In this document: positions 22,018 through 22,629 of the stretch, piece after piece
How positions within the stretch are numbered: position 1 is the first letter of the stretch
How the letters are laid out: each line of letters begins with the position of its first letter
DNA from: an uncultured Melioribacter sp.
GTDB lineage: Bacteria > Bacteroidota > Ignavibacteria > Ignavibacteriales > Melioribacteraceae
Assembly (NCBI GenBank): GCA_964570865.1
Contig: CAZMZM010000006.1
Coordinates: 196 to 64,195 of the forward strand
Reading direction: 5' to 3'
DNA length: 64,000 nucleotides
Program-made: the position numbers and the translations under genes
The notes under the pieces: generated by a model
What the model was told of the DNA's origin: nothing
Database searches by the model: none
What the model saw: only the letters and a program-made list of their open reading frames with translations

Positions 22018-22629
22018 TTAGAATGAAAATTCAACTTCTTTCTTTTTAACTCCACCCAGACGTTTAGCATTAACTGTAAACTTAACGGGCTCACTCATTG
22101 CAGAAAGGTTATCTCCAACCATCTCTTTCAATTTTTCCTGCAAAAAATCGGGCAAATAACTTGGAAGTTCCCGTTTAACACTGAACTTTGCATCCCAAGA
22201 ATAGAGTCCGGGTCTTTTAATTAACGCGTTAAAAACAGCTGAGCCGTCTTTGTTTTTCGTAATGAAATATTTATCGTTTTTTGTCTCATTATTTATACCA
22301 TCTTTTGGCCAATCCGGAGGTATATTCTTTGACTTCGGATCAAGAACAATAGTATATTGAACATTTGCTTTCTCTTTATCTGACACCAAACCAATTGGAG
22401 TCATAAAAACCTTTTTAGGTTCAGGGTTTTTACTTTTAATACTGTAATCGGAATTAGTTTCTGGAACATTTAAGAGAACCGGATTATTGTAAGACTTGGC
22501 AATTGTCCCTAACATTTGAACTTGAACAGCCTCTTGTTCCTCCAGCAGATCATCTCTTTCCACAATAACCATCAATAGTTCGGATATCAGAACAATGTAT
22601 AAGACAAAATAGACCATGTTTTTTTTCAT
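22018..22629 (-). CDS. Bitopic membrane protein (one N-terminal TM helix plus a ~170-aa exported domain) with GldM/PorM-like topology
   Basis: 203 aa. An SD-like AGAGGA lies 9 nt before the ATG. The N-terminus 'KKNMVYFVLYIVLISELLMVIVE' recalls the GldM N-terminal helix (..MINLMYLV..) and carries Glu17 inside the helix. Homology is unverified. Confidence 0.6.
   Translation of the reverse strand: MKKNMVYFVLYIVLISELLMVIVERDDLLEEQEAVQVQMLGTIAKSYNNPVLLNVPETNSDYSIKSKNPEPKKVFMTPIGLVSDKEKANVQYTIVLDPKSKNIPPDWPKDGINNETKNDKYFITKNKDGSAVFNALIKRPGLYSWDAKFSVKRELPSYLPDFLQEKLKEMVGDNLSAMSEPVKFTVNAKRLGGVKKKEVEFSF

Follow-up and report, generated by a model that had tools for sequence, protein, structure and literature searches.

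A conserved, unannotated bitopic protein of Ignavibacteria as the likely inner-membrane piece of a two-piece periplasmic arm

The stretch of DNA analysed here (hereafter the window) comprises 64,000 nucleotides from an uncultured Melioribacter sp. and contains a run of closely packed genes on one strand. Neighbouring genes in this run are separated by 58 nucleotides at most, or overlap, and we found no convincing terminator between the gene for a DUF2254 protein at its start and the gene for a 4646-aa protein, the last large gene of the cluster. In between lie, in this order, the genes for proteins of 169, 203 and 360 aa and for four secreted proteins, which we call A, B, A’ and B’. The 203-aa protein and its 169-aa partner are referred to as M-like and L-like, respectively, after the GldM and GldL proteins of type IX secretion that they resemble in layout. 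The features of the window discussed below are:

23235..24827, minus strand: 530-aa DUF2254 membrane protein (Pfam DUF2254, E 9e-12), upstream of the L-like gene
22667..23176, minus strand: 169-aa L-like partner with two transmembrane (TM) helices and a cytoplasmic coiled-coil tail (homologues, invariant columns, hhalign)
22018..22629, minus strand: M-like 203-aa bitopic protein (open reading frame, translation, homologues, AF2 model)
22561..22617, minus strand: TM helix of the 203-aa protein, residues ~5-23, with Glu17 (invariant columns, motif counts)
22060..22482, minus strand: single Ig-like beta-sandwich of the 203-aa protein, residues ~50-190 (AF2; hhalign against longer family members)
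20905..21987, minus strand: 360-aa secreted protein, signal peptide and three beta-sandwich domains (AF2, Foldseek, hhalign, BLASTP)
15056..20891, minus strand: A (509 aa) and B (466 aa), then A’ (508 aa) and B’ (460 aa), two tandem pairs of secreted proteins without annotation (open reading frames)
1062..15002, minus strand: 4646-aa repeat protein with a type IX C-terminal sorting domain (CTD; Por_Secre_tail, E 4.4e-8, in the last 499 residues)

The 203-aa gene reads from 22629 to 22018 on the minus strand (translated from the plus strand, this interval is full of stops) and starts with an ATG at 22629, upstream of which lies a purine-rich GAGGA-type site. The elements listed for this protein in the first-pass annotation are all present, on the minus strand: an N-terminal hydrophobic helix (NMVYFVLYIVLISELLMVIV, residues 4-23) containing Glu17 (GAA codon, 22581-22579), an acidic, Glu/Gln-rich segment (residues 24-38) and an exported domain of ~150 residues. 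The helix is oriented N-in and leaves a cytoplasmic tip of four residues (1-4). Measured from the stop of the 169-aa gene at 22667, the gap to the 203-aa gene is 37 nucleotides, exactly the spacing that had been given, and a further 30 nucleotides separate the 203-aa gene from the start of the 360-aa gene at 21987. The protein had also been described as far shorter than GldM, which holds when its 203 aa are set against the ~503-604 aa of full-length GldM from Bacteroidia genomes. A 6-bp inverted repeat (ACCATG ... CATGGT; window positions 22613-22632) surrounds the start codon; it might hide the start within the mRNA, or simply follow from the coding of Met-Lys-Lys-Asn-Met.

Relatives of the 203-aa protein are uniformly unannotated. 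A word-indexed search recovered 37 clusters of proteins of 189-205 aa with 31-100% identity, among which the only record with an organism name is a Melioribacteraceae MAG, and a profile search of 1.84 billion proteins yielded 108 family representatives at E up to 1e-3. The close family shows no variation at residues Y7, F8, Y11, E17, L18, L19, V21, I22, E24, R25 and D26, and the motif of the wider family consists of K3, Y7-F8, Y11 and E17-L-L, followed by E24-R25-D26 at the periplasmic boundary. Of 126 motif-bearing representatives, 111 have Glu and two have Asp at position 17, 118 show ERD or DRD at positions 24-26, and 83 carry Lys at position 3. No other part of the protein is nearly as conserved as the TM helix, in which 88% of members have a buried acid; the earlier picture of a bitopic protein with a membrane Glu of its own thus stands, and its N-terminal helix is strongly conserved across the family. 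An AF2 model computed with the family alignment (mean pLDDT 85.7) shows an unbroken helix from residue 2 to 48, which comprises the TM segment and ~25 periplasmic residues, a beta-sandwich (residues 52-190) and a low-confidence tail (193-203). Given the homologue clusters, the invariant residues and the confident model, a chance open reading frame can be ruled out: the 203-aa gene is real and conserved. We considered whether the C-terminal tail (193-203) docks onto the 360-aa protein and dropped this idea, as only the close clade conserves this segment.

The family is wholly unannotated, matching no Pfam or NCBIfam model, and its members are labelled ‘hypothetical protein’. Scans of the 203-aa protein against both collections at E up to 1 returned nothing apart from a chance match to fn3_6 (E 0.09), and a PDB sequence search with the M-like family profile returned a chance match to titin Ig and nothing meaningful. 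Foldseek comparison of the model with the PDB found generic V-set-like Ig domains only, and no GldM or PorM chain was among the top 50 matches of either the 203-aa or the 360-aa model. The unrelated families against which the first-pass annotation had weighed its own proposal, such as anti-sigma factors and sortase-like anchors, did not surface in the Pfam, NCBIfam or PDB searches; given a cytoplasmic part of four residues, the lack of any family match and the Ig-like fold, we rule out an anti-sigma factor and a sortase anchor.

About 10% of members, mainly ~445-aa forms of the family, have Ser, Gly, Ala, Asn or Gln in place of Glu17, and the residue is therefore not indispensable. The forms without the membrane Glu include L060 7564-8904 as well as P0193, P0198, P0212, P0219, P0241 and others, mostly of the ~445-aa type; P0198 and the M-like protein of L060 have an Asp three residues after the lost Glu position. 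Where the L-like partners of such forms are readable (L046 and L060), they keep their own Glu. This pattern echoes GldLM, in which the Glu of the L subunit is the essential one (PMC8986121).

The 169-aa partner belongs to a family of its own, with 118 homologue clusters, all ‘hypothetical’, and invariant residues that include V33, Y34, G36-A38, R47 and E82. Similar to GldL and PorL, it is built from two TM helices and a cytoplasmic helical tail, and a basic residue stands 11 positions after the GAA motif of TM1. Compared by hhalign with GldL from 28 gldL-gldM pairs of Bacteroidia genomes, which served as our reference set for both GldL and GldM, the 169-aa family reached 80.5% probability (E 1.3e-5); the alignment extends over 22 columns, all within TM2, and places Glu82 on GldL Glu49. 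None of 150 column shuffles attained the observed score (44.8, versus a mean of 24.5, a standard deviation of 3.0 and a maximum of 43.6). However, the similarity is confined to one helix and unstable between profiles, given that a profile of the hairpin alone (124 sequences) gave 18% (E 1.3e-3), which makes the link weaker rather than stronger. The periplasmic loop is, moreover, longer in the clade of the 169-aa protein than in GldL, the family falls below every GldL model (TIGR03513: no match), and a PDB sequence search with the L-like profile retrieved coiled-coil noise only. Judged from these comparisons, the 169-aa partner appears GldL-like in build, and homology to GldL is plausible but unproven. 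A second L-like subfamily of 321-455 aa has its GAA...RG / LEF hairpin close to the C-terminal end, preceded by an additional N-terminal TM region, and a short, GldL-like periplasmic loop; no M-like gene follows it (L102 6948-7979, L103 7524-8723, L104 5589-6956, L105 7860-8843, minus strand, and L058 7408-8424, minus strand). In L104 and L057, the gene next to this second type is a giant one of ~1800-1900 aa.

The gene downstream of the 203-aa gene turned out to be informative about the length of the arm. AF2 predicts three beta-sandwiches for the 360-aa protein (pLDDT 90.2), and Foldseek matches this model to rods of tandem Ig-like domains. The N-terminal module of the M-like family, that is the K..YFxLY....ELL..I.ERD helix plus the first Ig-like domain, also heads longer proteins of ~270-370, 430-457, 490-551 and 730-770 aa from other Ignavibacteria, as revealed by profile search. 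The 203-aa family aligns with the ~445-aa forms at 99.9% (hhalign, E 5e-33, residues 1-185 on 1-164) and with the ~520-aa forms at 98.3% (E 2e-14, 2-154 on 8-156). The 360-aa family (20 clusters), in turn, aligns with the same ~520-aa forms at 96.6% (E 5.7e-10, 73-322 on 261-508, 230 columns), and BLASTP of the 360-aa protein against long M forms gave independent matches at E ~1e-5; negative controls for the 360-aa family reached 0.5% against the ~445-aa forms, 0.1% against the ~750-aa forms and 4% against GldM. The two proteins of the window are thus colinear on the long form, with the 203-aa protein covering residues 8-156 and the 360-aa protein residues 261-508, and the 104 residues between the aligned pieces correspond closely to the 49 + 52 residues that are left over in the two proteins.

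Gene order tells the same story. A 360-like gene (356-398 aa) directly follows the short M gene in all eight short-M loci (the window, L011, L012, L106, L107, L108, L109 and L110), which represent several short-form clades; one of the eight carries a form without both Glu17 and ERD. An HMM of the 360-aa family finds stand-alone genes only beside short M, and in long-M loci it matches only inside long M-family open reading frames. Because the 203-aa protein is homologous to the N-terminal module of the ~520-aa forms and the 360-aa protein to their distal half, we consider it very likely, as far as homology can tell, that the latter is the detached distal part of an M-like arm and that short M and 360-aa protein together correspond to one long arm. 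The first-pass annotation had proposed that a short arm probably cannot span the periplasm alone and that either the 360-aa neighbour or the N-terminal domains of the A/B proteins would bridge the distance; for the 360-aa neighbour, the distal-half homology and the eight of eight loci speak in its favour. In an unrooted tree of the N-terminal module, whose bootstrap had not settled, the ~520- and ~750-aa forms fall on one side (support 98/95), and the other side holds a mixture of short, ~300- and ~445-aa forms, with nine changes for the ‘short’ state. Given this interleaving of length classes, M-family length has changed several times, and periplasmic distal domains have been freely exchanged between members. 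The two-piece arm may have arisen by gene fission or, in the opposite direction, the long forms by fusion, both being compatible with the unrooted tree.

The genes beyond the arm point towards the outer membrane. A, B, A’ and B’ end in aromatic residues, as is usual for outer-membrane barrels, and we regard them as putative barrels with which the module ends on its outer side. For the 169-aa, 360-aa and A/B proteins, scans against Pfam and NCBIfam produced no meaningful match, and the A/B proteins carry no TonB-dependent receptor signature. An A-B order after the M or 360-like gene recurs in L012, L060, L061, L099, L100 and L106-L110, so that the recurrent arrangement is L, M (whole, or short plus 360-like), A and B, followed in some loci by an OmpA-like protein. 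The latter, with a C-terminal ending of the peptidoglycan-binding type, stands after A-B in several modules, not in the window (L056 2880-4319, minus strand; L099 14913-16247; L110 10460-12025). The 4646-aa protein is a possible client of the module, a link that is based on position. Genes for type IX cargo also stand beside the module in L012, which encodes a 5413-aa equivalent, and in L106, which has a 760-aa CTD protein directly upstream of L; L107 contains a giant gene as well. A DUF2254 gene lies upstream in L012 and is absent from this position in L011, L060, L106 and L108; the DUF2254 protein is not a core part of the module.

L-like and M-like genes travel together, with M always standing directly behind the gene for the two-TM L-like protein. 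M is present in all nine L-positive genomes covered by both searches, and nine of ten L-negative genomes have no M match, the tenth having a weak one only (E 0.003). Among 151 genomes of the phylum, L-like matches are confined to the class of the window, except for two weak coiled-coil matches, and GldL scores above the cut-off only in genomes outside this class; three sub-threshold GldL matches, two of them in the window’s own order, fall in the cytoplasmic part of GldL. SprA was found in all 61 class genomes, and the M-like module, searched with the N-terminal profile, in 30 of the 61 (22 of 41 genera), including only one other genome of the window’s own family. These counts mark the module as accessory and rule it out as a class-wide motor for type IX secretion. 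Some lineages carry several paralogous modules in a single genome, and G145 has three adjacent L-M pairs. Further paralogous pairs, L074 6523-8867 and L059 6151-8408 (minus strand), consist of a 255-261-aa L-like gene followed by a ~500-aa M-like gene that lacks the Glu and part of the motif; in L074, the pair is followed by a gene for a 277-aa secreted protein and then by a canonical long M gene (9992-11599). Several loci derive from MAGs with conflicting titles (‘Chromatiales’ versus ‘Bacteroidota’ or ‘Ignavibacteria’). Contigs L062, L077-L080, L086, L091, L093 and L094, titled ‘uncultured Chromatiales/Ectothiorhodospiraceae bacterium’, carry long M-like genes that are 39-43% identical to genes of MAGs titled Bacteroidota or Ignavibacteria, and these titles probably mislabel bins.

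The first-pass annotation had called the N-terminal helix of the 203-aa protein GldM-like, and the protein shares several features with GldM and PorM, the rotor-arm subunit of the GldL5-GldM2 motor for type IX secretion and gliding (10.1101/2022.01.28.478170; PMC8986121). It is bitopic, oriented N-in, and exposes only a very short tip to the cytoplasm, and its gene directly follows that of a two-TM partner with a buried Glu. A basic residue at the cytoplasmic edge is followed by a Tyr eight positions later and by an acid at the periplasmic edge, 13-14 positions further: K3-Y11-E24 echoes R9-Y17-E31 of GldM, residues that have been named before (10.1101/2022.01.28.478170; PMC8986121), although this match was made by eye and the profile comparison of the two families is not significant. 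The periplasmic part is Ig-like, with four domains if the 360-aa piece is counted (1 + 3), and total lengths are similar as well (203 + ~340 mature residues versus roughly 500-600). Membership in the GldM/PorM family, however, is not supported by any of our sequence comparisons. No sequence or profile similarity is detectable: the M-like family (24 sequences) aligns with the 28 GldM sequences at 2.3% probability, a 51-residue N-terminal profile with the GldM N-terminus at 0.9% (E 0.06), and none of three ways of running this comparison was significant. A comparison with GldM domain D1 on the predicted structure found no D1-like helical domain; the continuous helix 2-48 takes its place and leads into the beta-sandwich with no helical bundle. 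‘GldM-like’ as a family assignment is consequently not sustained by the missing model and profile matches, the absence of D1 and the generic Ig matches in Foldseek. The 203-aa protein also differs from GldM in its extra intramembrane Glu17, in an arm that is split into two polypeptides, in neighbours that are A/B outer-membrane proteins instead of a GldK/GldN ring, with no gldK or gldN gene nearby, and in the accessory, multi-copy distribution of its family.

The genome of the window (2.47 Mb, 96% complete) encodes SprA (992 bits). Models for GldL (TIGR03513) and GldN (TIGR03523) found no match in this genome, and the GldM model (TIGR03517) retrieved only an unrelated Ig-repeat lipoprotein (E 7e-4). 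The sole candidate for gldK was rejected: it is an isolated FGE-sulfatase gene that lies on a different contig and has metabolic genes around it. Its product is a stand-alone FGE-sulfatase-domain protein of 288 aa (G000 contig C7, L010 8929-9795, minus strand), and the gene is placed between those for a nucleotidyl transferase and a membrane transporter, in no gld cluster. The absence of a recognisable GldL, GldM, GldN or true GldK agrees with the report that Melioribacter and Ignavibacterium possess SprA, PorV and Plug but no other T9SS protein (PMC11705866).

How should the 203-aa protein then be understood? It might be a highly diverged but true orthologue of GldM/PorM, with the L/M pair powering SprA-dependent type IX secretion. 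The order of L before M, the bitopic, N-in topology with Ig-like periplasmic domains, the K3-Y11-E24 layout, a partner that resembles GldL, and the presence of SprA in a genome that lacks canonical GldLM would all fit. Nevertheless, we consider orthology improbable, given that TIGR03517 and Pfam do not match, hhalign probabilities against GldM stay below 3%, D1 is missing, and neither gldK nor gldN is found next to the pair or elsewhere in the genome, apart from a lone FGE-sulfatase enzyme gene. Moreover, half of the SprA-bearing class genomes that we searched yielded no module, and some lineages maintain several paralogous copies. A passive role is rather unlikely, too. The 203-aa protein could anchor an Ig strut, of which the 360-aa protein would be part, and this strut would hold the A/B proteins in place or stabilise them with no transduction of energy, as might be expected from periplasmic parts that are plain Ig-like rods, from distal domains that are swapped freely among family members and from the loss of Glu17 in some of these. 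A simple anchor, however, would need neither a TM helix that is the most conserved part of the protein, with its buried acid and an invariant ERD-type boundary motif, nor an obligatory partner with invariant buried Glu and Arg. Since it is the TM helix that is conserved and the periplasmic domains that are exchanged, we favour energy coupling over passive anchoring.

ExbD, TolR and MotB, unlike GldM, carry a protonatable acid in their single TM helix. The 203-aa protein shares with them a single TM helix that bears a conserved carboxylate, a polytopic partner whose gene lies just upstream and a presumed role in passing energy from the inner membrane to outer layers. An acid-bearing subunit of the ExbD/TolR-TonB type, driving uptake or gating through the A/B barrels and unrelated to type IX secretion, would also account for the outer-membrane proteins encoded downstream and for the accessory nature of the module. 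Yet the periplasmic fold is Ig-like, rather than ExbD/TolR or OmpA-like, the partner has two TM helices, as GldL does, and not three or four, Pfam models for ExbD, MotA/ExbB and TonB gave no match at E up to 1, and the A/B proteins are without a TonB-dependent receptor signature. We hold such an energiser to be very improbable, and identity with ExbD or TolR as such is ruled out for the 203-aa protein by the lack of a family match together with the Ig-like fold.

We therefore lean, if only slightly, towards interpreting the 203-aa protein as the inner-membrane half of a two-piece periplasmic arm in an ion-driven L/M motor. The gene-level traits of 5:2 ion-driven motors such as MotAB, ExbBD, TolQR and GldLM are present, namely adjacent genes for a single-helix and a polytopic protein, conserved membrane carboxylates and co-occurrence of L and M, and the 203-aa protein and its L-like partner probably form a previously undescribed ion-driven envelope machine that occurs in about half of the Ignavibacteria. 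In such a machine, the TM helix of M would sit inside a ring of the 169-aa partner, whose Glu82 aligns with the essential Glu49 of GldL. Buried carboxylates of L and M would carry protons, and their flow through the bundle might turn or shift the M helix. Movement would then be passed along the Ig rod, formed by the 203-aa stub and the 360-aa piece and measuring roughly 20 nm by domain count, to the A/B proteins. The assembly would be a motor of the GldLM or ExbBD type, with 5:2 stoichiometry and a different, modular shaft, and a candidate client is the giant surface protein, exported by the type IX route, that the cluster encodes at its end. Going further, and tentatively, Ignavibacteria might possess a second, independent lineage of GldLM-type proton motor, whose modular shaft is made either whole or as stub plus rod, which engages paired outer-membrane barrels, not a GldKN ring, and which exports, anchors or moves giant type IX-secreted surface fibres.

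According to current descriptions, type IX secretion requires both the GldLM/PorLM motor and the GldKN ring. Ignavibacteria, in contrast, carry the SprA translocon with neither this motor nor this ring. If such a second lineage of motors exists, it would represent a new kind of envelope-spanning motor and give an initial hint of what powers type IX-like export in bacteria other than Bacteroidia. The natural split into two genes offers an experimental handle, given that stub, rod and fused long forms can be swapped for one another, and the split demonstrates that domain shuffling is one way in which shafts of this type can evolve. The module constitutes a new conserved gene set that spans the envelope, even if it should turn out to have no relation to type IX secretion.
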